This document shows positions 1 through 19,535 of a DNA stretch of 31,276 bases, piece by piece. This DNA is from a virus. Its lineage: Duplodnaviria > Heunggongvirae > Uroviricota > Caudoviricetes. The stretch is from the IMG/VR virus record IMGVR_UViG_2534682222_000020, positions 1 through 31,276 of that record, one strand, 5' to 3'. The notes beneath the pieces were generated by a model. It was not told where the DNA came from and ran no database searches. It saw only the letters and a list, made by a program, of their open reading frames with translations. Made by a program: the position numbers and the translations under genes. Positions within the stretch are counted from its first letter, which is position 1. Every line of letters starts with the position of its first letter.

Positions 1-396
1 CTATTGTGCGGCCGATTCTTCTGGGCCGCACAATTTCTCGTAATCTTTTGGCGCCGTTCTATCTAAACCTGTGTAAATTTCTTTCCTCATGATTGAGTAG
101 GTTACACCCTTTGAGAAGGCGCCCTTAGGAACCATATTTATTTCTACCAGGAAGGGAGAAAAACCAGCGTAAGCCCCAAACCCATTTTTTGCATTCAGCT
201 GCCCGCATACGATCCCCTTAACCTCACCATCTTTTGTTTCTTCTGTTTGCACAAAACGCATATACCGAAATTTTGCGCTATCTGGATCTCTTGTATCTGC
301 GGCAACCTCTTTCTGCGCCAGTTCAATAGCCTTATCAACACCAGGCTTACACCCTACAAGCCCGATTAATGCCAGTAAAACCATGGTTTTTCTCAT
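1..396 (-). CDS. Putative lipoprotein (host gene or prophage cargo; possible surface/exclusion protein)
   Basis: ORF 1..462 minus; internal ATG at 394..396 preceded by GGGGA RBS gives MRKTMVLLALIGLVGC, a signal peptide with lipobox L-V-G-C. No recognisable phage structural homology. Lies beyond the ogr terminator. Confidence 0.5.
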   Translation of the reverse strand: MRKTMVLLALIGLVGCKPGVDKAIELAQKEVAADTRDPDSAKFRYMRFVQTEETKDGEVKGIVCGQLNAKNGFGAYAGFSPFLVEINMVPKGAFSKGVTYSIMRKEIYTGLDRTAPKDYEKLCGPEESAAQ

Positions 397-460
397 TTTC
401 GTTCCCCACTTCCATTGGTAAGAGCGGTAATTATCATTTTCTGCTGATTGCTTCTCAAGC

Positions 461-486
461 AAAACCCCGCAAATGCGGGGTTTTCT
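461..486. terminator. Bidirectional intrinsic terminator downstream of ogr
   Basis: Seen in sequence: aaaa-CCCCGC-aaat-GCGGGG-tttt; 6-bp GC stem (465..470 / 475..480), 4-nt loop, T-tract on both strands, immediately after the ogr stop (487..489). Confidence 0.55.
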
Positions 487-735
487 TCATACTGCGAGAC
501 TGAGTTGACTGCTTCCATAATGCGAAGCGGGGAAAGCATCTGATGGGATGAAATCAGCCGGTAACTTATCGCGTGGTGCGCGTTTGGTTACCAGCTTCTC
601 AACGCTGTTGAGCGTAGTAAACGTAATACTGCATTCGAAATTCTGGCACTGGTGATAATGCCGGACTGTCATTTCACTAAGATGGCGACTGGTGCGCGTA
701 CGGGCGACGGCACCACAAACAGGACACTTAAACAT
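487..735 (-). CDS. ogr: Ogr/Delta-family zinc-finger late-gene transcription activator
   Basis: 82 aa; MFKCPVCGA...RYHQCQNFECSITFTT matches the recalled P2 Ogr Cys4 pattern (CPxC...HQCQNxxCSxTF). Confidence 0.85.
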   Translation of the reverse strand: MFKCPVCGAVARTRTSRHLSEMTVRHYHQCQNFECSITFTTLNSVEKLVTKRAPRDKLPADFIPSDAFPASHYGSSQLSLAV

Positions 736-780
736 AATGGCCTCCCATGGCGGGAGTTGAACTCGCTCATATTATGGCCG

Positions 781-1935
781 CTATGATTCGGTTTCTGCAA
801 TCCATTCAGGTATTTTTGCTTCCAGTTCCAGCCGCGTTTTAAATCCACTGCTGTCAATAGTGTGGCTTGCCTTGGCAATTATCCAGTCCTGGCCGTCAAT
901 GACGTCTTTGAATTCCGTTACCGTTCCGTGCATCTCCGGATACAGATCCGCGCGCCCGTAAGCCAGGGTTAAAGTGAACTCAGCTGCTCCTCGCTGGAGT
1001 TGTTGCCATTTTGCAGCTGCTGCACGTTGTGCGGCCATCTCACTGCTGTACGTAGTGCGGAGTACAAAAACGTTACCATCTTCACCGGCAATATAGTCCC
1101 CTTCCCGGCTGCTGCTACGCGGCTTTTTGTCTGCGGTTTTCTTCCGTTTTTTAACAGTGACCTTTTTCTTTTTTCCGAAATCCATATCAAGCCAGTACGC
1201 CTGCACGCCAGTGTATGCGTCACGATCTGCAATCCGGAAAGAATGTCGATCTCCGCTGCTGCGCGTGATGGAAAACTCCGGTAACGCTCTGCCGTTTGCA
1301 CTGACGCCACCACCAGGCAGGATGAACAGCAGGTAACCATTTTTCACAGTTGCAATAGCGCCCAGCATTTCCGCCATGCGCGTCAGAAACGACATGTCAC
1401 TTTCTTGTGTCTGATCTGCATGGTCGATCTCGGCGGACATCAGTTGCTCTGAGATGAGAGGTTTTAACTTGTACCGGTGAGCTATAGCAGAGACGATGCG
1501 CTCAACTGTAACGTCATGCCACGACACCTCCCGTTTGACGTTAAACTCATCGCGGAAATCTGCACTTCTGGCCGTGATCTCGATACGGTCCGGCGGCCCT
1601 GAGTGCGCAATTTCATCCACGATGAAAATCCCTTTGTGAACCAGTTTTTCTCCCTGCCAGCCTATCGCTACTGACAATTCTGCACCACGCGGGGGTAACT
1701 CAATATCTCCCTGGCTATCATCAACAGTGATGGTCAGCTCATCAGCATTAAAGCCCCTGTTATCTGTTAATTCTAATGAGACCAGGTTCCCATCCAGCAT
1801 GATCAACGCCTTGCCGCCAAGCATGACGTTAAACGCAGGTACACGTGACAGGTCGCCCGGATAATTTTTGAATTTCTCAGCACCCGCATTCAGCAGGCTT
1901 TTTGCGCTCTCTATTGCGTCAGTTGTCAGTGCCAT
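781..1935 (-). CDS. D: Tail protein D (late control gene D)
   Basis: ORF 781..2016; likely start ATG 1933..1935 (MALTTDAIE) with GAGGAG RBS. Conserved blocks DNRGF, RSADFR, SWHD, HIDQTQESD..FLTR, SGFKT and a Lys-rich linker, as recalled for P2 gpD. Confidence 0.85.
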   Translation of the reverse strand: MALTTDAIESAKSLLNAGAEKFKNYPGDLSRVPAFNVMLGGKALIMLDGNLVSLELTDNRGFNADELTITVDDSQGDIELPPRGAELSVAIGWQGEKLVHKGIFIVDEIAHSGPPDRIEITARSADFRDEFNVKREVSWHDVTVERIVSAIAHRYKLKPLISEQLMSAEIDHADQTQESDMSFLTRMAEMLGAIATVKNGYLLFILPGGGVSANGRALPEFSITRSSGDRHSFRIADRDAYTGVQAYWLDMDFGKKKKVTVKKRKKTADKKPRSSSREGDYIAGEDGNVFVLRTTYSSEMAAQRAAAAKWQQLQRGAAEFTLTLAYGRADLYPEMHGTVTEFKDVIDGQDWIIAKASHTIDSSGFKTRLELEAKIPEWIAETES

Positions 1936-1993
1936 CGCTTTCTCCTCACGCAAATATTTCCATGCGCGCGCGATAGGACAAACAGCCTTTTGT

Positions 1994-2011
1994 TGTCGCC
2001 TTTCTGTGACA
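1994..2011. promoter_or_regulatory. Candidate Ogr-binding dyad (TGT-N12-ACA) between divergent D and FI
   Basis: Seen: tgtcgcctttctgtgaca. P2-type late promoters carry TGT-N12-ACA centred near -55. A GAATAT -10-like hexamer at 2046..2051 puts the dyad about -55 for FI; an AATATT-like hexamer on the minus strand near 1953..1958 puts it at a similar distance for D. Confidence 0.4.
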
Positions 2012-2086
2012 TCCATCGTGACGTGTCTGCCGCCCGGAATTCAGCGAATATCACCATGAACTCACTAAACATGATGGCGGTAGAGT

Positions 2087-3268
2087 ATGACCGACAACTT
2101 TTTCCACGGATCACGCACCAAAGAAAACACCGACCTTCTGGCCGCGATCAATGACATTGATTCAACGGTCATTGGTCTGGTCGCGGTGGCCGATGATGCC
2201 GATCCCCTCACCTTTCCACTTGATACACCAGTCCTGATCACTCGCGTGATTAGCGTGCTGGGTAAGGCAGGCAAGACAGGCTCACTGTATAAATCTCTCA
2301 AGGCTATTTCCGACCAGGTCAGCACGCGCGTCATTGTTGTTCGTGTCGCTGAGGCCAAAGAGGGTGAAGATGAAAAAACACAATCTCAGCTCATTATCGG
2401 TGGCACTCAGGCTGACGGAAGCTATACCGGTATGTTTGCCCTGCTGACCGCAGAGCAGAAAACGGGTTATCGCCCTCGAATCCTCGGCATTCCGATGTAT
2501 GACACGCAGGAAGTAACCGCACAGCTGCGCGTAATTGCGAAGCAACTGCGTGCGTTCTCTTACAGCTATTGTGATGGCTGCGAGACTATTGCCGAAGCGA
2601 AGACCTACCGCGAGCAGTTCGCCGAACGTGAAGGGATGTTAATTTGGCCTAACTTCATCGCCTACAACCCGCAGACCGGCGTTAATGAAGAATTCCCGGC
2701 TGTTGCCTATGCGCTTGGCCTGCGGGCACTGATTGATAATGAGCAGGGCTGGCACAAATCACTTTCTAACGTTGCGGTGAAAAACGTCCTGGGTATCTCT
2801 AAAGACGTGTTCTGGGCGTTACAGGCGGAGGACTCCGACGCTAATGAGCTGAACGCTAACGAGATTACCACGCTGATCAAACGCGATGGCTTCCGGTTCT
2901 GGGGTAACCGTACCACCGACACCGAAGAGTATATTTTCGAGGTGTTCACCCGGACGGCCCAAATTCTTGCGGACAGCATTGCGGAAGCACAATTCACCAC
3001 CGTGGATAAACCGCTTACCCCGGCTAACGTCAAAGACGTTGTAAGCGGGATCAATGCCAAGCTTCAGGCGCTGGTCACTGCTGGCAAGCTGATTGGTGCA
3101 GCGTGCTGGTTTGATATTGTCGACAACCCGACCACTGGTATTCGCCAGGGTAAAGTTGTTATTCGCTACAACTACAGTCCCGTACCACCGCTGGAAAACC
3201 TGACGCTGATCCAGACGTTTACCGATCAGTATTACGAACCAGCCTTTGCATCGCTGGGAGGTGCATAA
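2087..3268 (+). CDS. FI: Contractile tail sheath protein FI
   Basis: 393 aa; ATG at 2087; RALIDNEQGWHKSLSNV, TTLIKRDGFRFWGNRT, YNYSPVPPLENLTL closely match recalled P2 FI. Confidence 0.9.
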   Translation: MTDNFFHGSRTKENTDLLAAINDIDSTVIGLVAVADDADPLTFPLDTPVLITRVISVLGKAGKTGSLYKSLKAISDQVSTRVIVVRVAEAKEGEDEKTQSQLIIGGTQADGSYTGMFALLTAEQKTGYRPRILGIPMYDTQEVTAQLRVIAKQLRAFSYSYCDGCETIAEAKTYREQFAEREGMLIWPNFIAYNPQTGVNEEFPAVAYALGLRALIDNEQGWHKSLSNVAVKNVLGISKDVFWALQAEDSDANELNANEITTLIKRDGFRFWGNRTTDTEEYIFEVFTRTAQILADSIAEAQFTTVDKPLTPANVKDVVSGINAKLQALVTAGKLIGAACWFDIVDNPTTGIRQGKVVIRYNYSPVPPLENLTLIQTFTDQYYEPAFASLGGA

Positions 3269-3784
3269 ATGGCTATTCCTAAGAAACTCCGCCTGTTCAC
3301 GATGTTTGTCGATGGCGACAACTACATCGGGAAAATACCCAGCGTCACGCTCCCGAAAATCACCCGTAAAACGGAAGATTACCAGGGTGGCGGTATGCTT
3401 GGCTCTGCTGCTGTTGATCTCGGCCTTGATTCAGGTGCACTGGATGCATCAATGATTGTTGGTGGCATGGTCGAGGAGCTGATCCTGAAATGGGGTGGGG
3501 ATATTGACGAACTACGCACGCGCTTTGTCGGTGAGATCTACAGCGGCGGTACAAGCTCCCTGCTTGAGGTCGAGATGCGCGGACGTATTACCGAAGTCGA
3601 CCAGGGCGAAGCCAAGCAAGGTGATGACACCAATCATACTTATGCGCTCAAAAATACGTATTACAAGCTGTCCGTGGATGACAAACCTCTGCTGGAAATC
3701 GACCTGCTGAACTTCATCTACAAGCGCAACGGTAAGAGCCTCTACCCGGATCGCATTGCGTCCGCTCTGGGCCTCGGCCAGTAA
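3269..3784 (+). CDS. FII: Tail tube protein FII
   Basis: 171 aa directly after FI stop (TAA 3266..3268) with GGGAGGTG RBS; size and position as P2 FII. Confidence 0.85.
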   Translation: MAIPKKLRLFTMFVDGDNYIGKIPSVTLPKITRKTEDYQGGGMLGSAAVDLGLDSGALDASMIVGGMVEELILKWGGDIDELRTRFVGEIYSGGTSSLLEVEMRGRITEVDQGEAKQGDDTNHTYALKNTYYKLSVDDKPLLEIDLLNFIYKRNGKSLYPDRIASALGLGQ

Positions 3785-3805
3785 CCTTTTTTAACCACTA
3801 CAAAT

Positions 3806-3824
3806 GGCGGCCAGTCTGGCCGCC
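3806..3824 (+). other. Intercistronic stem-loop between FII and E
   Basis: Seen: GGCGGCCAG-t-CTGGCCGCC, perfect 9-bp inverted repeat; no downstream T-tract. Confidence 0.4.
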
Positions 3825-3837
3825 CGGAGAAAGAATA

Positions 3838-4137
3838 ATGTCAGTAACTCTCAGCCAACCCATTAAACGCGGCGATCAGGAAATCAAATCCGTCTCAATC
3901 ACCGACACAATCAAGCAGGCTGGCTCACTGCGCGGGCTGCGTCTGGTTGATGTTCTCAACTTCGATTATGACGCGGTATCAACTCTGCTGACTCGCGTAA
4001 CCACGCCCCAGCTGACAACTGCCGATATTTCCTCAATGGCGACCGGCGACTTTACGGCCCTGTGCGAAGAAATCACGCCTTTTTTGACGAAAGCGGCGCC
4101 GTCCGCACCGAGCGAGGCGGCAACGGCGAGCAAGTAA
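3838..4137 (+). CDS. E: Tail assembly chaperone E
   Basis: 99 aa; position after tube gene and before tape measure; contains the slippery heptamer near its 3' end. Confidence 0.8.
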   Translation: MSVTLSQPIKRGDQEIKSVSITDTIKQAGSLRGLRLVDVLNFDYDAVSTLLTRVTTPQLTTADISSMATGDFTALCEEITPFLTKAAPSAPSEAATASK

Positions 4138-4310
4138 GAGAGGCAGTATTCAGCGATGTCGACGATCTGATCGCCGATATCGCTGTGATATTTCACTGGC
4201 CGCCCTCCGAAATGCACAGCATGGAGTTGCGCGAGCTGATGGCCTGGCGCGAACGGGCGGCCATCAGAAGCGGCAACCATGATAAGGAGGATGACGACGA
4301 TGGATCTTAG
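3838..4310 (+). CDS. E': E+E' fusion chaperone made by programmed -1 ribosomal frameshift
   Basis: Slippery heptamer T TTT TTG at 4080..4086 in the E frame (cct ttt ttg); the -1 frame continues open as FFDESGAVRTERGG... to a stop at 4308..4310, overlapping the T start. Same arrangement as P2 E/E'. Confidence 0.7.
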
Positions 4311-7239
4311 TATTCGCGTTGCGTTCAGTGCAATTGACAAGCTCACCCGCCCGGTCAGCGCCGCCAGTAAAGCTATTGGCGGCCTTTCCGACTCCCTCAA
4401 AAAAACTCAGTCCTCCATCAAAGACCTGGAAAAAAGCGCAACATCATTTGATAAGTTACGCTCGCAAGCCAATGACACTGCGCAGAAGCTGAAAAGCACC
4501 CAGCGGGCATTTAACGGTCTAAACCAGAAGCAACGTGAAGGCGGCCAGCTTACTGAAGCCCAGACGGCACGGCTTGAGTCACTTCGCACCAGGCTTTCCC
4601 GGCTGACGGAAACCTACGGCAGGCAAACGACGCAGCTGCGCACAGCAGCGCAGGCTGTGCGCCAGCATGGCGTTAATCTCACCACCGGTAGCGGCGCCAT
4701 CCAGAGTGCCATCAGGCGTACGGAACAATACAACCAGGCACTTGAGCGCGAACGTCGTCAGCTGGCTGCTACCCAGAAAGCCCAGGCCAGATACGAACAG
4801 GCAAAAGAGACTGCGGGTAAACTTCGCGGTGCAGGCATGGGGATGATGCTTGGCACTGCTGCTGCGGGCTACGCTGGCGGATCATTCCTTGCGCCTGCGA
4901 TTGGTTTCGACGAGGAAATGTCACGCGTCCAGGCCTTAACCCGCCTTAATAAAGACTCTTCCCAGATGGGAGATCTGCGCGCGCAGGCTAAAAAACTCGG
5001 TGCAGAAACTGCATTCACCTCTCGCGATGCAGCCAGCGGGCAGGCGTTTCTTGCAATGGCTGGCTTTACTCCAGAGGCCATTCAGGCGGCATTGCCCGGC
5101 GTTCTGAATATGGCGCTGGCCGGTGGCATGGATCTTGGTGAAAGTGCCGATATCAGCTCCAACATTCTTTCGCAGTTCCGCCTTGATCCAAAGGAAATGG
5201 ATCGGGTCAGTGATGTTTTGACCGCAGCATTTACCCGTACTAACACCGATTTAATGAACATCGGTGAGGCGATGAAGTATGCAGGAACCGGGATGGCTGG
5301 TCTTGGCGTTGATGTTGAGCGCACAACCGCCATGATCGGTGTAATGGCCAACGTTGGCCTGCGGGGTAGTATTGCAGGTACTGGCCTACAAACCACCTTT
5401 TCACGTCTGGCCGCACCAACAGGCAAGGCTCAGGCAGCCCTGAAAGAATTGGGCGTTTCTGTTGCTGATGCCACCGGAAAAATGCGACCGGCCGAAGTGG
5501 TCTTGTCTGATATTTATAAATCTATCAAAAAGTACGGCGATACAGACCAGCTTTCATTCTTCAAAGATATCGCTGGCGAGGAGGCAGCAAAGTCATTTCA
5601 GGCGCTGGTTAGATCGGCTGGTAGCGGTGAGCTGCAAAAACTCCTTGCCGATTTGCGCGGCTCTCAGGGTGAAGCGCAGAAGGCAGCGAAGGTCATGGCT
5701 GACAACCTCAGCGGTGATCTGAAAAACCTGGACAGCGCATGGGAGGGTTTCCGCATTCAGATTGAGGAGACTGCCGACGGCCCTCTGCGCTCTCTCACTC
5801 AGGGGCTTAGCGATATGATCACCGCCGCCAGTACCTGGGTAAAAGAAAACCCCCGACTGACACAAACAATCATTCTGGTTGTCGGTGGGACACTTGCACT
5901 GGTGGCGGCAATTGGCGCTGCATCACTGGCGATGGGTATTCTTATTGGCCCCCTCGCCAAACTTCAGCTCGGCTTTTCACTGCTGACCGGTGGTCGCGGG
6001 CTACTCGGCACCATTGCAGCTTTTCGCACTCTCGGCACTGTCGCGGGCCCGGCCATGGCAAGTGTCAGAGGATGGTCCGTCGTACTGTCAGGAATCGCCC
6101 CTAACCTGGGAAGAATTTCAGCTATTCTCCCTGCGGTTCGCTCTGGTCTGCTTACTGCATTCCTGTCTCCTGGCGCACTTGTGGGATCGCTGACTAAAAA
6201 CATTGGCATGCTGCTGCTTCGCCTCACTGGCTTACCAGCAATCTGGGGCATGATCACCGGTGCGATATCTGTTCTTGGTGGGGCTTTATCTTTTTTACTC
6301 AGTCCAATAGGCCTGATTGGTGCCGCGTTTGTATCTGCGGGATTGCTAATCTGGCGATACTGGGAACCCATTAAGACATTTTTCCTCGGTATGTTTACCG
6401 GAGTTATGCAGGCGATCTCCCCTCTCAGGGATGCCTTTGCCACCTTTTCCCCCATCTTTGACATGATCAGCAATGGGGTGAAATCCGTCTGGCAGTGGTT
6501 TACAAACCTTTTGTCGCCAATGCAGACCAGCAAAGAGACGCTTGATAAATGCGCGAGCGCTGGCGTGATCTTCGGTAATGTGCTCGGCGGTGCGATTAAT
6601 CTCGTCCTGACCCCAGCCAGGATGCTACTTGATACTCTGGGCTGGATACTTGAAAAACTTGGTGTACTACCTGATGAAGCAGAGAGGGCGCGCAAGAAAA
6701 TTGAGGATGCGCAACGCACTGCCCTCCTTCAGGATAAGGTGGCTTTCCTTGCCGGTGATATGGCTAAAGTCGCCCCCAAAAAAGCAGAGTCGCCAGTTAC
6801 TACTGCTGCACCCGCTGCGGCCTCGCCGCTATCAGGAAATACCGGTACGCAACGACGCCTGCAAAGCATCGCAGACAATACAAAAGCAACCGCTGACAAC
6901 ACCAAGAAAGTCGGGCCGGGTGACATTATTTTCAAAAACCTGCCGCGCGCTCTGGCTTTACGTGGCGCATACCAGGAAGCGCGTGTTACACCGCAGTCAG
7001 TGCCGCGAGTGGCAACGCCCGCCGCTGGCGGCATTATTTCCGCGACAGCAGCCACTCAGGCACCGGTATCGGCCCCCGTTACCGCGCCCACCGGCAATGC
7101 TCCAGTGTTTAACATTACCTTTAACGATGTTGGTAAGCGCACGGATCAGGAGCTGGAAAGAATGGTACGCAATGTTGTGCGTGATGCGATGGCCAGTACC
7201 AACAGAAATAACCGTGGTTCTTTCCGCGACAGAGATTAG
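4300..7239 (+). CDS. T: Tail tape measure protein T
   Basis: ORF 4279..7239; preferred start ATG 4300 with AAGGAGG 9 nt upstream. About 980 aa, coiled-coil N-terminus, long hydrophobic Gly/Ala-rich middle, between E' and U. Confidence 0.85.
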   Translation: MDLSIRVAFSAIDKLTRPVSAASKAIGGLSDSLKKTQSSIKDLEKSATSFDKLRSQANDTAQKLKSTQRAFNGLNQKQREGGQLTEAQTARLESLRTRLSRLTETYGRQTTQLRTAAQAVRQHGVNLTTGSGAIQSAIRRTEQYNQALERERRQLAATQKAQARYEQAKETAGKLRGAGMGMMLGTAAAGYAGGSFLAPAIGFDEEMSRVQALTRLNKDSSQMGDLRAQAKKLGAETAFTSRDAASGQAFLAMAGFTPEAIQAALPGVLNMALAGGMDLGESADISSNILSQFRLDPKEMDRVSDVLTAAFTRTNTDLMNIGEAMKYAGTGMAGLGVDVERTTAMIGVMANVGLRGSIAGTGLQTTFSRLAAPTGKAQAALKELGVSVADATGKMRPAEVVLSDIYKSIKKYGDTDQLSFFKDIAGEEAAKSFQALVRSAGSGELQKLLADLRGSQGEAQKAAKVMADNLSGDLKNLDSAWEGFRIQIEETADGPLRSLTQGLSDMITAASTWVKENPRLTQTIILVVGGTLALVAAIGAASLAMGILIGPLAKLQLGFSLLTGGRGLLGTIAAFRTLGTVAGPAMASVRGWSVVLSGIAPNLGRISAILPAVRSGLLTAFLSPGALVGSLTKNIGMLLLRLTGLPAIWGMITGAISVLGGALSFLLSPIGLIGAAFVSAGLLIWRYWEPIKTFFLGMFTGVMQAISPLRDAFATFSPIFDMISNGVKSVWQWFTNLLSPMQTSKETLDKCASAGVIFGNVLGGAINLVLTPARMLLDTLGWILEKLGVLPDEAERARKKIEDAQRTALLQDKVAFLAGDMAKVAPKKAESPVTTAAPAAASPLSGNTGTQRRLQSIADNTKATADNTKKVGPGDIIFKNLPRALALRGAYQEARVTPQSVPRVATPAAGGIISATAATQAPVSAPVTAPTGNAPVFNITFNDVGKRTDQELERMVRNVVRDAMASTNRNNRGSFRDRD

Positions 7240-7248
7240 GTGACGATT

Positions 7249-7737
7249 ATGATGATGGTTTTTGGAATGTTCGTTTTTATGCTGCGCACCACGCCCTACC
7301 AGCAACTCCAGCACTCGCAGGAGTGGAGGCACGTTAAAAACGAGCGCGTTAACCAGTCAGCAGGCTGGCAGTACATCGGCACTGGTGATGACAACATAAC
7401 CCTTTCAGGTGTTCTTTACCCGGAGATCACGGGGGGAAACCTCTCGCTATCCGCCCTTGAAACTATCGGCTATGCGGGGCGCCCATGGCCGCTTATTGAT
7501 GGTACGGGACGTATTTATGGTATGTACGTTTTAACACGGCTGGAGCGAGGTAAATCCGAATTCGATCAATTTGGGAATCCCAAAAAAATTGAATTTACCC
7601 TCAGCCTGAGCCGTGTCGACGCGGATTACAGGGAGAAGCTGCAAAGCTCGACCGTCAGCGACGCCCTTGCCGGGTTAAAGACGAGTGCAAATAATGCGAT
7701 AAACCAGGTGAAAGACTCGCTCAACGGTCTGTTTTAG
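7249..7737 (+). CDS. U: Tail protein U
   Basis: ORF 7240..7737; ATG run at 7249 (MMMVFGMFVFML) with AGGTGA RBS; WRHVKNERVNQSAGWQY, ITLSGVLYPE, KIEFTLSL match recalled P2 gpU. Confidence 0.8.
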   Translation: MMMVFGMFVFMLRTTPYQQLQHSQEWRHVKNERVNQSAGWQYIGTGDDNITLSGVLYPEITGGNLSLSALETIGYAGRPWPLIDGTGRIYGMYVLTRLERGKSEFDQFGNPKKIEFTLSLSRVDADYREKLQSSTVSDALAGLKTSANNAINQVKDSLNGLF

Positions 7738-7744
7738 CAGTGGC

Positions 7745-8313
7745 TTAAACCCCTTCATGTTCCCTTCTTCTTGAAGGGAACTTCTTGTAAAGCGTCGATA
7801 TTCCGACATCAAAAATAATAGCCACCTGCTGCCGTTTTTCCCCTGCGGCGATCAGCCTTCCCGCCTGTTCCCATTGCTGCTTTGTCAGTTTTGGCCGCCT
7901 CCCGCCTATTCTTCCTTCTGCGCGGGCAGCCGCCAAACCGGCGCGGGTACGCTCAACGATCAATTCTCTCTCCATTTCTGCCAGCGCCCCCATGACGTGA
8001 AAGAAAAAGCGCCCATGGGTGTTGAGGTATCAATGCTGTCTGTCAGGCTGCGGAAGTTAACACCGCGATTGCGTAGCTCTTCGATCATTGTCACCAGGTG
8101 GCGCATGCTCCGCCCAAGACGATCAAGCTTCCAGACAACCAGCGTATCACCCTCCGATAAGGTCCGTAATAAACGCTTAAGCCCCGGCCTTTCCGCTTTA
8201 GTGCCGCTTATTTTGTCTTCAAATATTTGTTCACATCCTGCGCTTACCAGCGCATTTCTTTGCAGCGCAGTGTTCTGGTCATTTGTTGACACCCTTACAT
8301 AGCCGATCAGCAT
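7745..8313 (-). pseudogene. Hin/Gin/Pin-family serine DNA invertase, apparently frameshifted (1-nt deletion) or sequencing error
   Basis: N-terminal ORF 7960..8313 (MLIGYVRVSTNDQ..., active-site Ser) reads correctly to ...STPMG then goes out of frame; the adjacent frame reads GRFFFHVMGALAEMERELIVERT...GISTLYKKF (HTH domain) to a stop at 7745. The break maps to the C-run at 8012..8014. Confidence 0.6.
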
Positions 8314-8420
8314 AAAAATCCCCTTTTATTTAGATGTCATAGTCCCTCGCATTGTATCGAGCATCGTCATTTCTGGCTGTACTGCAGGTCTGGTACCGCA
8401 CCGTCAGAAGTAACCATGTC

Positions 8421-8446
8421 TTCCGGAAAACGTTGGTTTGGGAGAA
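8421..8446. repeat. Left inversion crossover site (gix/hix-like), invertase-proximal
   Basis: Seen: ttccggaaaacgttggtttgggagaa; 22/26 identical to the reverse complement of 10268..10293; AAACC...GGTTT architecture of Gin/Hin sites. Confidence 0.6.
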
Positions 8447-8767
8447 GCGGCGAAAAGGAATGTGGGGACTGGGGCGAATCAGATACCAGACATGTCAGCT
8501 TATTCATCAGGATCTGGCTGGCAAAAATTGCCTGATGGTTCAATTGAACAGTGGGGACGAATTAATTTCCCGACTAACGCCGCGGCGGTATCTACAAATG
8601 TGACTTTCCCCATTCCTTTTACGCAGGAGCCAGACGTAGTGATTGTATATGACGGCGGTTTTGGTGATGGGAATATGTGGGGCGCAACTAACTGGACGCG
8701 AACAGGATTTGTTGCGCATTGTAACTATGGATTTGAAGGTGGAGCTTTCTTTGCGAAAGGGCGTTAA
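8438..8767 (+). CDS. Promoterless alternative tail-fibre C-terminal domain (Sv'-like cassette)
   Basis: Open frame begins inside the left crossover site (...[15 protein letters not shown]...), has no ATG or RBS of its own, and is followed 2 nt later by a tail-fibre assembly gene; would fuse in frame to the H constant region after inversion. Confidence 0.55.
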
Positions 8768-8769
8768 TT

Positions 8770-9210
8770 ATGAAATATTTATATATTGATAATCTGGCGT
8801 ACCCTTACGCCCTACAGTCTGTTTACGCTGCAAAAGGGCAATGGCCAGAAGGAAAAGGCGTAGACATAGACGAAGCTATTTTCAGGGAATATTTCCATGA
8901 CACGCCGCCCGAAGGTAAGCGCAGAATTACCGCAGGCGACGGAATGCCAGCTTGGGCAGATGTTCCTCCACCAACACGTGAAGAACAAATTGCATCAGCC
9001 GAAACTAAAAAGCAGCAATTGATTAACCAGGCCAACGAATACATCAACAGTAAACAATGGCCAGGTAAAGCATCAATTGGTCGTCTGAAAGGTGAGGAAC
9101 TGGTGCAATATAATTTGTGGCTGGATTATCTGGACGCACTGGAACTGGTCGATACTTCCGGTGCGCCAGATATTGAATGGCCTACGCCTCCGGCAGTTCA
9201 GGCCAGATGA
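8770..9210 (+). CDS. Tail-fibre assembly protein, alternate copy (Tfa')
   Basis: 146 aa; ATG 8770 right after the cassette stop; C-terminal ...LVDTSGAPDIEWPTPP resembles the C-terminus of the minus-strand Tfa (...TDTSTAPDVIWPELP). Confidence 0.7.
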   Translation: MKYLYIDNLAYPYALQSVYAAKGQWPEGKGVDIDEAIFREYFHDTPPEGKRRITAGDGMPAWADVPPPTREEQIASAETKKQQLINQANEYINSKQWPGKASIGRLKGEELVQYNLWLDYLDALELVDTSGAPDIEWPTPPAVQAR

Positions 9211-9784
9211 CGTCCGGCGCTGTGCTGGTATCTGTTGCCGTCACCGCGTCAATGTAATCCAGCACAGCGTTAAGTCGGGTGTTTTCTGGCTGCGTCAGCT
9301 TCCGCCCGGCCTGTAATTTCAGTTGAATCAGACTGATGGAAGCCATTGCTGCATTAATCAGTGACTGGCGCTGTGCTTCTGCCGCGTCTAGTGCGGCGCT
9401 ATGCTGTGCCTCGGTATCCGTCACCCATTTCTCACCATCCCATTTATCGTATGGCGTTAATGGGGCGATAGTGGTTGTATTTTCAGGGTAATCACCCGGA
9501 ACTGTGATTTCTTTGGTATCTCCCGTTTCGGTACTATAGACAACTTCACCGCGATGGTCTGGCACATATTCCCATGAATTTAAATCTACAGAGCGACAGA
9601 TTGCATAACCAGCTTTATGTGTACCTGGTGCATCCAGACAGGAACATGCCGGGATACCGACGCCGACAGCGAGATATTCAGTTGATGTAGAAATATATTC
9701 CCGCGTTTCGCCATCATAGTTATGTACGATGATTTCCCCATCATTTAAAGCGTAACCGTCTTTTCCCAAAATAGCCTGTTCCAT
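9182..9784 (-). CDS. G: Tail-fibre assembly protein G (active-orientation copy)
   Basis: 200 aa immediately downstream of H (H stop 9785..9787, ATG 9782..9784); conserved Tfa C-terminal motif. Confidence 0.75.
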   Translation of the reverse strand: MEQAILGKDGYALNDGEIIVHNYDGETREYISTSTEYLAVGVGIPACSCLDAPGTHKAGYAICRSVDLNSWEYVPDHRGEVVYSTETGDTKEITVPGDYPENTTTIAPLTPYDKWDGEKWVTDTEAQHSAALDAAEAQRQSLINAAMASISLIQLKLQAGRKLTQPENTRLNAVLDYIDAVTATDTSTAPDVIWPELPEA

Positions 9785-10888
9785 TTATGCAGCCCTCACA
9801 ATGTAGTTAAATGCAATGTTTCGCGGGCTACCATCACCGGCGCCGGAACTGACATGATTGGTTCTATCCATTCGTTTACTGTCATTTGTTGTTCCACTCC
9901 CATCCTTCCACGAATACAATAACCCGCCATCGCCAATGCTCAACTGCACCGCAAATACGGATGAACCGGATGAATAAACATCTCCAGCCATGAGTGGGTT
10001 CCCTGTCCATCCATGCATTTCATGGTTATGTTCAAGGATAGATGCTGCCTGACTTGAAAGCAGCAGTCTCGCGGAATCAACACCTCGCCCATCATCCCAC
10101 CCGCGAATAAACTCACCGCGCAAATCCGGTAATTTTAACTTTGGGTAAGCCTTTGCCAGTTTTGGGTACTTTTCGGCAGAAAAAGGTGCACCGTTGCATT
10201 TCAGCCAGCCTGTTGGTGGTGTGGCTGAAGGCCACGGAACAGGCACACCAACGGGTAACGCTGAGCCTTCTCCCAAACCAAGGTTTTGGAGAACCTGATT
10301 TACCAGCCCAGCATCAACCATTTCTTTTAATGCATTAGCTATCAGTGGGTATTGCTTGTGCGGATTTGCAGCAGCTACGTGCTTTTTCATCACATCATCG
10401 GCGTATGCCTTAACTTCAATAACGGCATCATCAACATATTTACGGGTTGCCAGCACCACTGACGGATCGATTTTCAGCGTCACAGCCTCGGTGCTGCTGA
10501 CGATCAGGATCACGCGAATAACCTGCACGCGCCCGCTACCTTCCTGCAACTGCGGTTTATAAGTCTCTGCACAGTTGGCAACCGCAATCATATCGCCGTC
10601 TTTATCAAACAGGCCAATCTCACGGATCCACCATCCGCCCGCGTCTTCCGGTATAACCTGTTCCGCAATGATCTGATTGGTGTTTACCGGGTCAACAGTC
10701 AGCATGTTCAGCTGCGCGCGGCGCAGCTCATGCACGAGGGCGGTTTGGGCCGGATTGGGTGTCGGCAGCGCGCCGTTACCATCACCGACGGCCATTTGGG
10801 TGATCTCAACCTGCGCACCCAATGCCGTGGCGTTTGCCAGTTTTGCCGCCCCGATATTGGTTAACAGGGCAAAATATTTAGTCGCCAC
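9785..10888 (-). CDS. H: Tail fibre protein H (constant N-terminus plus variable C-terminus in the invertible segment)
   Basis: ORF 9785..10909; likely GTG start at 10886..10888 (VATKYF... aligning with recalled P2 H MSTKFK...) with GGAG RBS. IGAAKLANAT, QMAVGDGNG, GGWWIREIGL, YVDD match the P2 H N-terminus. Crossover site lies in-frame at 10268..10293. Confidence 0.8.
   Translation of the reverse strand: MATKYFALLTNIGAAKLANATALGAQVEITQMAVGDGNGALPTPNPAQTALVHELRRAQLNMLTVDPVNTNQIIAEQVIPEDAGGWWIREIGLFDKDGDMIAVANCAETYKPQLQEGSGRVQVIRVILIVSSTEAVTLKIDPSVVLATRKYVDDAVIEVKAYADDVMKKHVAAANPHKQYPLIANALKEMVDAGLVNQVLQNLGLGEGSALPVGVPVPWPSATPPTGWLKCNGAPFSAEKYPKLAKAYPKLKLPDLRGEFIRGWDDGRGVDSARLLLSSQAASILEHNHEMHGWTGNPLMAGDVYSSGSSVFAVQLSIGDGGLLYSWKDGSGTTNDSKRMDRTNHVSSGAGDGSPRNIAFNYIVRAA
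10268..10293. repeat. Right inversion crossover site inside the H coding sequence
   Basis: Seen: ttctcccaaaccaaggttttggagaa, internally near-palindromic; encodes VLQNLGLGE in H. Confidence 0.6.
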
Positions 10889-11492
10889 TTGCGATCTCCA
10901 CGGTATCAATTAAATGGACTGCCGCGCCGGTGTAGTCGCCACCGCCCACGGATATGGTTTCAGGAAAATAGGGGTAAACGGTCAACGTATCGCCGATATA
11001 ACACCCCGCTCCGGCTTCGATATACCCCTGCGTCTGAAGCGAAAGCGAAAGGCCGGTAAGGTGGCGGCTTCTGGGTTTCGCGTCATCAATCAGGCGTTCA
11101 AGCTCCTGATATGTTTCCTCGGTTATCCCTTCGTCCTGAATGCCAATTTCAAGCTTGAAAGTGCCGGGCTCCTCGCCGCTCTGCCACCACTCAATCACCC
11201 TCAGCAAATAGCCGAAAGGTTCAACAACGCGCCTCAACGCCGAAATCGTGCCTTTGTGGCGATGGACAAGCCACGAGGCTTTAATTACCTGCCTTTTGGT
11301 CTGTTCAGACCAGCGCTTATCCCAGCGATCAACAGACAACGCCCAGGCCAGATAGGGTAAAAACTCCACGGGGCATTCATCCGGATCCCAGAGCTTTCGA
11401 AGGTCGACAGGAATACCGCTGATCCGCGCCGTCGGTTTCTCCGCATTCCGCATGAAATTGCTGGCTGAAGGCGGCAGGAGGTTGTTATTCAT
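10878..11492 (-). CDS. I: Baseplate assembly protein I
   Basis: 204 aa; LWDPDECPVEFLPYLAWALSVDRWD, VVEPFGYL, RLIDDAKPRSRHL match recalled P2 gpI. Confidence 0.85.
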   Translation of the reverse strand: MNNNLLPPSASNFMRNAEKPTARISGIPVDLRKLWDPDECPVEFLPYLAWALSVDRWDKRWSEQTKRQVIKASWLVHRHKGTISALRRVVEPFGYLLRVIEWWQSGEEPGTFKLEIGIQDEGITEETYQELERLIDDAKPRSRHLTGLSLSLQTQGYIEAGAGCYIGDTLTVYPYFPETISVGGGDYTGAAVHLIDTVEIASGD

Positions 11493-12381
11493 CCGTTCCC
11501 CCTACGCTGATGGTGTGCGAAATACACCGTGCAGCCTGGGTATCATCGATCACGATATCTTCCAGAGGGTTCAGCAAGACGACGCGCTGCACCCCCTGAA
11601 CATGCAGAGCGGCCATAATGGCCGAACGCGCAACATCGCGACCGATTTTCCCCTGCGCTCCCAGCCATGCCTGCAATGCATCATCTGCCGCGCTCAGGAT
11701 CGGCTCAGATTCCGGCCCCGGATAGAGATAAAGCAGAGCGTTAATTTCATAATTCACAATCTCCGCTGACTGGACGGTGAGCCTGTCAGCGACAGGCCGC
11801 TTATCATCCGCTGAGAGCGTGTCGTTTACCGTTGTGATCAGCTCGGCGCTCGCCGTGCCATCTCCTTCGGTAGACAGAATGGATACGACGACGACAGCGG
11901 GAGAAGGACTGGTTGCTTTGGCGTCTGCAACTTTACCGCTGGCGCTTTTCGCAAAATATTCATAAGCCCCGGTAGGACCGGCAACGCTCAGCCCTTCAAA
12001 AGCGGATTGTGCACGCAAACGCAGTGCTGTATCGCTTTCCATCTCCGCATCAGTGGTTTCCGTAGCAGGAACACGAACCAGGCGTTCGGTGTTCAGGTTG
12101 CCAGCAAGGTTATCAAGGTCAGTGGATACGGAATGGCTTAACATGCAGGCCGCAGCGCCCTCATTGATTCGCTGACGCAGCATTAATTCCCGGTAGGCAA
12201 TTACCTGCGCCAGTATGGTCAGGGGTTCAGACTCAAGTTTTAACGCAGCGGCAACAGAAGCCTGCTGTTCATCAGGGAAAGCCGCGATCATGACGGCTTT
12301 GACATCCGCCAGGATCACTTCAAAATCCAGCACTTCAATAATTTGCGGCGGTGGTAACTGCGCCAAATCAACTGTTGCCAT
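11485..12381 (-). CDS. J: Baseplate assembly protein J
   Basis: 298 aa; size and position between W and I; overlapping stop/start with neighbours. Confidence 0.8.
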   Translation of the reverse strand: MATVDLAQLPPPQIIEVLDFEVILADVKAVMIAAFPDEQQASVAAALKLESEPLTILAQVIAYRELMLRQRINEGAAACMLSHSVSTDLDNLAGNLNTERLVRVPATETTDAEMESDTALRLRAQSAFEGLSVAGPTGAYEYFAKSASGKVADAKATSPSPAVVVVSILSTEGDGTASAELITTVNDTLSADDKRPVADRLTVQSAEIVNYEINALLYLYPGPESEPILSAADDALQAWLGAQGKIGRDVARSAIMAALHVQGVQRVVLLNPLEDIVIDDTQAARCISHTISVGGTDE

Positions 12382-19375: not shown

Positions 19376-19451
19376 GTTCGTTTACTCGCTTGTTTTCTGA
19401 GTTCCCGGAGATGATGGCAGGGGGACGCATCCCCCCTCAACGCGTTGTTGT

Positions 19452-19469
19452 TGTGAGCGGAGCACTACA
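19452..19469. promoter_or_regulatory. Candidate Ogr-binding dyad (TGT-N12-ACA) in the O/P divergent late-promoter region
   Basis: Seen: tgtgagcggagcactaca; centre about 55 bp upstream of a plausible P transcription start (GTTAAT -10-like at 19503..19508). Only perfect dyad in the 160-bp intergenic region. Confidence 0.4.
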
Positions 19470-19535
19470 ACCTAAAGCGAGCGCAAGGGTACGCGCGCGC
19501 GGGTTAATCTCCCCGGCAGGAAGCGAGGAGGATTA

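Follow-up and report, generated by a model that had tools for sequence, protein, structure and literature searches.

Tail genes FI to U run opposite to D and ogr as an ordinary gene order in a large branch of P2-like phages

In P2-type phages, the late genes FI, FII, E, E', T, U, D and ogr form one co-directional unit in which U overlaps D. The initial annotation of the DNA studied here had described FI to D as co-directional in P2, and the P2-type phage Wphi bears this out. The P2 late-promoter consensus and operons have been stated previously (PMC3931495). We compared this arrangement with the corresponding genes in a 31,276-nt stretch of DNA, which we refer to as the window. P2 and Wphi (Peduovirus) share with the window the genes of the FETUD operon, the E/E' frameshift and the Ogr activator, as well as a late promoter with TGT-N12-ACA that precedes FI by a similar distance. 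At the protein level, FI, FII, U and D are only 46-50% identical between these phages and the window, and E and T less than that. In contrast to the P2-type unit, FI-U is inverted in the window and D-ogr stands alone.

Several described phages come closer. Klebsiella phage 3LV2017 (Peduoviridae, Reginaelenavirus; NC_047817 / KY271397) resembles the window in its whole late-gene layout, with U-T-E-FII-FI opposite to D-ogr. Its gpD and FI are 83% and 90% identical to those of the window at the protein level, and its D/FI spacer of ~153 bp shares the dyad and -10-like elements described below, but it carries other tail-fibre genes and lacks both an invertase and an invertible fibre segment. In a rough BLASTN comparison of the two, the aligned fraction was 0.75 and identical bases amounted to ~0.57 of the window length, a figure that is not a VIRIDIC value and that derives from what may be a partial prophage. 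Genus assignment in ICTV practice calls for ~70% or more nucleotide similarity to the type species across the genome; the observed value falls below this, so the window and 3LV2017 may not belong to the same genus under such a rule. P88-type Xuanwuvirus (LR595891, NC_049344) and Reipivirus ST16-OXA48phi5.4 (NC_049450) have FI-U inverted in the same way, with a spacer of ~154-157 bp between D-ogr and FI. These phages are more distant from the window (gpD 56-74%, FI 70-76%), their dyad reads TGT-N12-AGA and their early regions differ, while in Xuanwuvirus an invertase abuts U convergently as it does in the window. Serratia phage KSP20 (AB452988), a partial record of only 6 kb deposited in 2009, has a gpD-like orf2 opposite to the gpFI-, gpFII-, gpE- and gpT-like orf3-orf6.

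The inverted layout can thus be read from the annotated records of 3LV2017 (Reginaelenavirus), KSP20, P88-type Xuanwuvirus and Reipivirus, and the inversion is already known through deposited, annotated public genomes, since 2009. A literature search on P2-like phages, KSP20, Reginaelenavirus, Xuanwuvirus and Ogr promoters found no paper discussing it. A further group of systems bears on the window through its invertase gene. The Gin/Hin/Cin/Pin invertible segments, which include the G segment of Mu, the C segment of P1 and the P segment of e14, have a serine invertase gene beside an inverted stretch of tail genes, and the window likewise has one beside its inverted tail genes.

In the window we recognize a P2-like prophage (Peduoviridae) that sits beside fieF in E. 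coli. Pfam matches together with the slippery site indicate that the gene content of its P2-like tail module is complete (FI, FII, E/E+E', T, U, D and Ogr/Delta), the E+E' product being of the -1 frameshift type found in such modules (Table 1). The initial annotation had described FI to U as inverted relative to D/ogr and to the other late genes, and both the ORF listing and Pfam agree: FI, FII, E/E', T and U (2087-7737) are on the plus strand, opposite to D-ogr (1935-487) and the remaining late genes on the minus strand. There is no co-directional FI-FII-E-T-U-D operon and no overlap of U with D. The divergent gap between D and FI measures 151 bp, as had been reported. At the other edge of the block, the stop of U (7737) and the stop codon of the invertase gene (7745-7747) are convergent and 7 bp apart, again as first described. 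Downstream of U, a terminator-like hairpin lies inside the convergent invertase gene, at its 3' end. Beyond the invertase, the minus strand carries tail-fibre genes (H), followed by I, J, W, V and S.

The D start codon is an ATG at 1935 preceded by its own Shine-Dalgarno sequence, GAGGAG; a longer D ORF that reaches 2016 was rejected as the true start in favor of this ATG. The start of gpD is conserved from residue 1 among 80 IMG/VR loci, and the D gene of a 99.9% identical prophage is annotated in RefSeq as an identical 1155-nt coding sequence. In the window ogr lies directly downstream of D, and in every locus examined it is on the same strand as D. RefSeq annotation places the starts of T and U at the equivalents of 4300 and 7249, respectively. 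Because no upstream co-directional late gene reaches D, and D is cut off from every co-directional late operon, D requires a promoter of its own, in line with what the initial annotation had argued.

Table 1. Features of the window discussed in the text, with the evidence for each.
Feature	Position	Strand	Basis
ogr, zinc-finger late activator	487-735	-	Pfam Ogr_Delta, E = 1.9e-18
D, baseplate hub, 384 aa	781-1935	-	Pfam Phage_GPD
D/FI divergent control region	1936-2086, 151 bp		alignment of 74 distinct spacers
Extended -10-like element TGnNANNAT, putative PD	1954-1962, hexamer 1959-1954	-	spacer alignment
Near-invariant alternating CG tract CATGCGCGCGCG	1961-1972		just upstream of putative PD -10
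Ogr-type activator dyad TGT-N12-ACA	1994-2011, centre 2002.5		motif search; alignment
-10-like hexamer GANNAT, predicted PF	2046-2051	+	43.5-48.5 nt from dyad centre
FI, tail sheath	2087-3268	+	Pfam Phage_sheath_1, Phage_sheath_1C, Gp18_domIII_N
FII, tail tube	3269-3784	+	Pfam Phage_tube, E = 2.4e-46
E	3838-4137	+	Pfam Phage_TAC_7 (chaperone)
E+E' frameshift extension	3838-4310	+	slippery TTTTTTG 4080-4086
GpE domain coding stretch	4167-4310	+	Pfam Phage_P2_GpE, E = 1.5e-20
T, tape measure	4279-7239	+	Pfam PhageMin_Tail
U, tail protein, final gene of inverted block	7240-7737	+	Pfam Phage_P2_GpU, E = 5.5e-42
Terminator-like hairpin with T-rich tail, downstream of U	7759-7781	+	consensus scan only
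Serine DNA invertase pseudogene	7745-8313	-	Pfam Resolvase and HTH_7 split across two ORFs
Invertible element, tail-fibre C-terminus and assembly-gene segment	8422-10292		inverted gix-like sites

We examined how widely this order is shared. With 700-9000 as the megablast query, one uninterrupted alignment spanned the D/FI junction in E. coli chromosomes that match with 99.9% and 93% identity, and the matching E. coli prophages were all inserted beside fieF. The junction was also contained in a single alignment piece for 3LV2017 and for KSP20, the latter with 76% DNA identity. Scanning IMG/VR with the window gpD returned 429 contigs, and when the window proteins were compared by tblastn with the best 80 of these, whose gpD is 78-98% identical, FI-U was opposite to D-ogr in every case (80/80). 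A GTDB scan with a gpD alignment, taking one genome per species, returned 80 loci; the order was inverted in all loci with gpD identity of 57-98% (62/62) and canonical in all loci with gpD identity of 52% or less (18/18). Inverted loci spanned more than 25 genera of Enterobacterales, among them Yokenella, Klebsiella, Raoultella, Kosakonia, Enterobacter, Serratia, Pectobacterium, Brenneria, Erwinia, Pantoea, Salmonella, Citrobacter, Edwardsiella, Providencia, Morganella, Photorhabdus, Xenorhabdus, Hafnia and Yersinia.

The initial annotation had proposed a synteny comparison with P2-like relatives and had held that the arrangement would be unremarkable if it proved to be the standard one of a lineage already described. 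This comparison set an inverted clade apart from Gegevirus, Wadgaonvirus and Wphi, which keep the canonical P2 order, and the inverted order is indeed standard in Reginaelenavirus, Xuanwuvirus, Reipivirus and Serratia phage KSP20. The window shows the features of this clade, with FI-U opposite to D-ogr and a divergent spacer within ~150-157 bp. As every sampled member of the clade has the identical fixed order, the inverted arrangement is ordinary in this branch of P2-like phages, which is large and has already been sequenced.

Neighbor-joining trees of gpD and of FI each contained one branch that parts 63 inverted from 17 canonical loci, the latter being the nearest canonical relatives only, and the window fell on the inverted side in both trees. 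Since a single branch separates the two arrangements in each tree, the simplest reading that fits these sequences is that one ancient inversion has been passed down through a large clade; independent inversions may have occurred elsewhere in Peduoviridae, beyond the sampled canonical relatives. We consider it very probable that the block was inverted once in the ancestor of the clade and then fixed, with PF moving along with it and D-ogr becoming a separate unit, and with one dyad possibly serving both.

The position of the activator dyad suggests how this inversion might have proceeded. In the window, the dyad centre precedes the FI ATG by 84.5 nt and the D ATG by 67.5 nt, and in canonical relatives a TGT-N12-ACA motif precedes the FI start codon by 80.5-86.5 nt. 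The similar distance to FI argues that PF moved with the block, which in turn would place one breakpoint upstream of the PF activator site, after the end of the tail-fibre/invertase module, and the other at the U/D overlap. The ancestral segment would then have consisted of the PF promoter, FI, FII, E/E', T and U, flipped in one event, after which the end of U would face the fibre/invertase module convergently and the PF region would stand back-to-back with D. D would have gained a ribosome-binding site of its own together with an N-terminus specific to the lineage, and D-ogr would have become a separate transcription unit. We also considered an ancestral inversion carried out by an invertase at a pseudo-site, and set it aside because no trace of it remains and most members of the clade have no invertase beside the block.

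We aligned 74 distinct D/FI spacers from three genera and KSP20, whose length is conserved at 151-157 bp. The dyad reads ACA in 71/74 of these spacers and AGA in 3/74, and TTGTTGT is invariant. On the FI side, 74/74 spacers have a GANNAT hexamer, which takes either of two adjacent registers: 43.5-48.5 nt from the dyad centre, or one base further. On the D side, the element TGnNANNAT occurs at a fixed distance in 74/74 spacers, with zero indels between it and the dyad while neighboring bases vary, and in the window its hexamer lies 43.5-48.5 nt from the dyad centre, the exact mirror distance of the PF hexamer. These -10-like hexamers were picked after viewing the alignment. No sigma-70 consensus promoter was found in the D/FI spacer by a consensus scan of 400-8500, which fits dependence on an activator.

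Activator dyads of P2 late promoters are centered at about -55. Applied to the window, this spacing predicts starts ~55 nt from the dyad on either side, at ~2058 for FI and ~1947 for D. The predicted FI start coincides with the beginning of a conserved FI leader, GAACTCAC..., at ~2058. With a single symmetric dyad and a -10-like hexamer on each side, one bound activator could serve both promoters, and one Ogr-type activator on this dyad would drive both PF and the new PD. The window contains a comparable region elsewhere: perfect TGT-N12-ACA sites were found in the D/FI spacer and in the P/O spacer (19452-19469), which we predict to be late promoters, and the P/O spacer has a single dyad, apparently serving both P and O, with -10-like hexamers placed symmetrically on both sides. 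PF and PD thus appear, as judged from these motifs, to form a bidirectional Ogr-activated promoter pair like that of P/O. In P2, read-through from PF into ogr gives late positive feedback, and read-through from PD into ogr would preserve this feedback in the inverted arrangement. The sharing of one site by two late promoters has a precedent in the annotation of phage Smp131, where one TGT-N12-ACA site is assigned to both PP' and PO' (PMC3931495).

Two features sit less easily with a shared dyad. The predicted PD leader starts at the Shine-Dalgarno sequence and, at only ~12 nt, is unusually short. Moreover, the CATGCGCGCGCG tract, the most conserved part of the D-proximal spacer, has no role in a model in which the dyad alone is shared. 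Both features favor an alternative in which the inversion is fixed as described but D is driven independently of Ogr, or by another factor acting on CATGCGCGCGCG, with the PF dyad not shared, since a near-invariant tract is needless under Ogr control and the short leader is a product of the shared-dyad model. We nevertheless think this alternative unlikely. No sigma-70 consensus promoter was found in the spacer, and none of the 74 spacers has an indel between the dyad and the extended -10-like element, which mirrors the PF hexamer exactly in its distance from the dyad. In addition, a CG tract also precedes the -10 of the P promoter, which is known to be Ogr-dependent in P2 (PMC3931495). This second tract, CGCGCGCG, lies just upstream of the -10 of the P (terminase) promoter at 19492-19501, and its distance from the P dyad is similar to that of CATGCGCGCGCG from the D/FI dyad in all three genera. 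On this evidence, the CG tract resembles a component shared by certain late promoters more than it does an alternative control.

Returning to a dyad shared by PF and PD, a more specific proposal can be made tentatively, and we put it forward as a possibility that we do not yet favor. The D/FI spacer might be a second bidirectional late control region, brought about by the inversion, whose PD side (dyad, ~20 nt, CG tract, -10) copies PP, in which case the CG tract would be an unrecognized element shared by some Ogr-dependent promoters, and D-ogr would be autoactivated by Ogr and uncoupled from sheath and tube synthesis. An origin of PD as a duplicated copy of PP was also considered; the similarity is restricted to the shared motifs, and we do not claim homology.

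An invertase gene, with its stop at 7745, abuts the right-hand border of the block, which raises the question of whether FI-U could be a live invertible segment, flipped by this neighboring serine invertase and sometimes co-directional with D. Invertases of this family flip DNA that adjoins the invertase gene, and here the tail-fibre segment is flipped in this way. For FI-U, however, we regard a live switch as extremely improbable. The alternative orientation was seen in 0/142 related loci (80 IMG/VR and 62 GTDB), and the inverted arrangement is present where there is no invertase at all, as in 3LV2017 and Reipivirus. The invertase of the window is itself frameshifted, a defect that the initial annotation of the block had not mentioned. 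Nor did the block edges contain the sites that such a switch would use: aligning 1900-2100 locally with the reverse complement of 7690-7820 gave a best score of 17, with a shuffle mean of 15.2 and 111/500 shuffles scoring as high, and a repeat search of 1-11500 found no inverted repeats above chance linking the two edges. When the whole window was scanned for gix-like sites with its own two crossover sites as models, only the fibre-segment sites scored, a weak 16/26 match at 7781 being at background level. FI-U therefore lacks all three hallmarks of a serine-invertase switch, namely crossover sites, both orientations and a functional recombinase in cis. Unlike the Gin/Hin/Cin/Pin segments, it has a single orientation, and only 8422-10292 behaves as they do. 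The initial annotation had reported no gix-like site near 1936-2086, which holds and extends to significant inverted repeats at either edge of the block, and had judged the inversion to be probably an old fixed rearrangement rather than a live switch, a view that the single orientation of 142/142 related loci and the absence of flanking inverted repeats and gix sites bear out.

The invertase belongs to the tail-fibre module, outside the inverted block, and adjoins U for this reason; its adjacency to U is incidental, and it serves the fibre switch at 8422-10292. In Wadgaonvirus, which has the canonical order, the tail-fibre module occupies the equivalent position directly upstream of PF-FI, and in most of the inverted clade an invertase is missing from that position. 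Alignment with an intact 189-aa homologue located the frameshift in the window to a 1-nt deletion in the run at 8012-8014, and the gene is intact in the 93% identical relative L004. The fibre segment, by comparison with FI-U, has both crossover sites and two observed orientations. Its gix-like sites (8422-8447 and 10267-10292) match each other at 22/26 positions, its ends form a 21-nt inverted repeat that is 95% complementary, and it is oppositely oriented in the 99.9% identical prophage of strain PCP06171.

The PCP06171 prophage carries the same invertase defect, for which RefSeq gives the note 'frameshifted', and its fibre segment has the opposite orientation despite this defect. Between the window and PCP06171 the fibre segment is 94% identical, with a cassette at 8448-8944 unmatched, while the flanks are 99.9% identical.

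An assembly artefact, or a recent rearrangement confined to this strain, has nothing in its favor as an explanation other than the departure from the P2 reference order, and can be dismissed almost with certainty, as identical junctions occur in independent complete E. coli chromosomes, sequenced phages and metagenome contigs, and the genomes that share them range from 99.9% down to ~57% protein identity across more than 25 genera.

These results make the inverted order a stable marker for one widespread branch of P2-like prophages in Enterobacterales, a branch that includes loci in Xenorhabdus, Photorhabdus and Pectobacterium. In practice, this synteny character can help to classify P2-like prophages, and a gene order unlike that of the P2 reference should not be taken as evidence of misassembly. 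A point of modest biological interest is that D and ogr have been split from the sheath/tube operon, with one symmetric activator site apparently reused in both directions.

The serine DNA invertase gene beside gene U is a pseudogene in the window. One nucleotide is missing from a run of G (CCC when read on the plus strand), which leaves two ORFs, 117 aa and 82 aa long, whereas a relative at 93% identity (L004) carries an intact gene of 189 aa. The prophage in strain PCP06171 (L003), which is 99.9% identical, shares the frameshift. While the invertase is thus defective in cis in both prophages, the tail-fibre segment bounded by gix-like sites (window 8422-10292) is oppositely oriented in PCP06171 (L003 12728-14628). 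Moreover, the two fibre segments are only 94% identical, compared with 99.9% for their flanks, and a cassette at 8448-8944 is unmatched. Together, the opposite orientations, defective invertases, unmatched cassette and contrast between segment and flanks suggest that flipping occurred in trans, or earlier than the frameshift, and was accompanied by cassette exchange.

Features and their positions in the window
Feature	Position	Strand	Remark
153-aa ORF	1-462	-	ogr on one side, fieF flank of the chromosome on the other
Alternating CG tract CGCGCGCG, D/FI spacer	1961-1972
Serine invertase pseudogene	7745-8313		1-nt deletion in run at 8012-8014
P/O divergent spacer	19376-19535
Alternating CG tract CGCGCGCG, P/O spacer	19492-19501

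At the prophage end, the 153-aa ORF had no match in Pfam, and in L004 it is replaced by a different hypothetical gene in the opposite orientation. This ORF is likely a cargo gene.

A Firmicute-labelled contig (L117; NZ_JBQPOM010000071.1, 'Vagococcus sp. WN89Y') holds an enterobacterial-type P2-like prophage with the inverted arrangement, in which FI-U run opposite to D-ogr, and a gpD 73% identical to that of the window; this assembly is probably contaminated or mislabelled. In Escherichia phage 520873 (L087 31638-34782, Xuanwuvirus), an IS100 (IS21-family) element interrupts the sheath gene and gene D is fragmented, and the deposited 'phage' therefore looks like a defective prophage.

The P/O spacer contains only one perfect TGT-N12-ACA, the Ogr-type late activator site (19452-19469), with the -10-like hexamers TAATCT and CATCAT placed symmetrically 44.5-49.5 nt to each side. 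Given this symmetry around a single dyad, the two late promoters may share one activator site. In the D/FI spacer the alternating CG tract lies towards D, and in the P/O spacer towards P (terminase); in each case it sits directly upstream of the -10-like hexamer, some 31-40 nt from the centre of the dyad. The FI and O sides lack it. Across the window, L001, L085, L086 and L087, the tract is kept in three genera.
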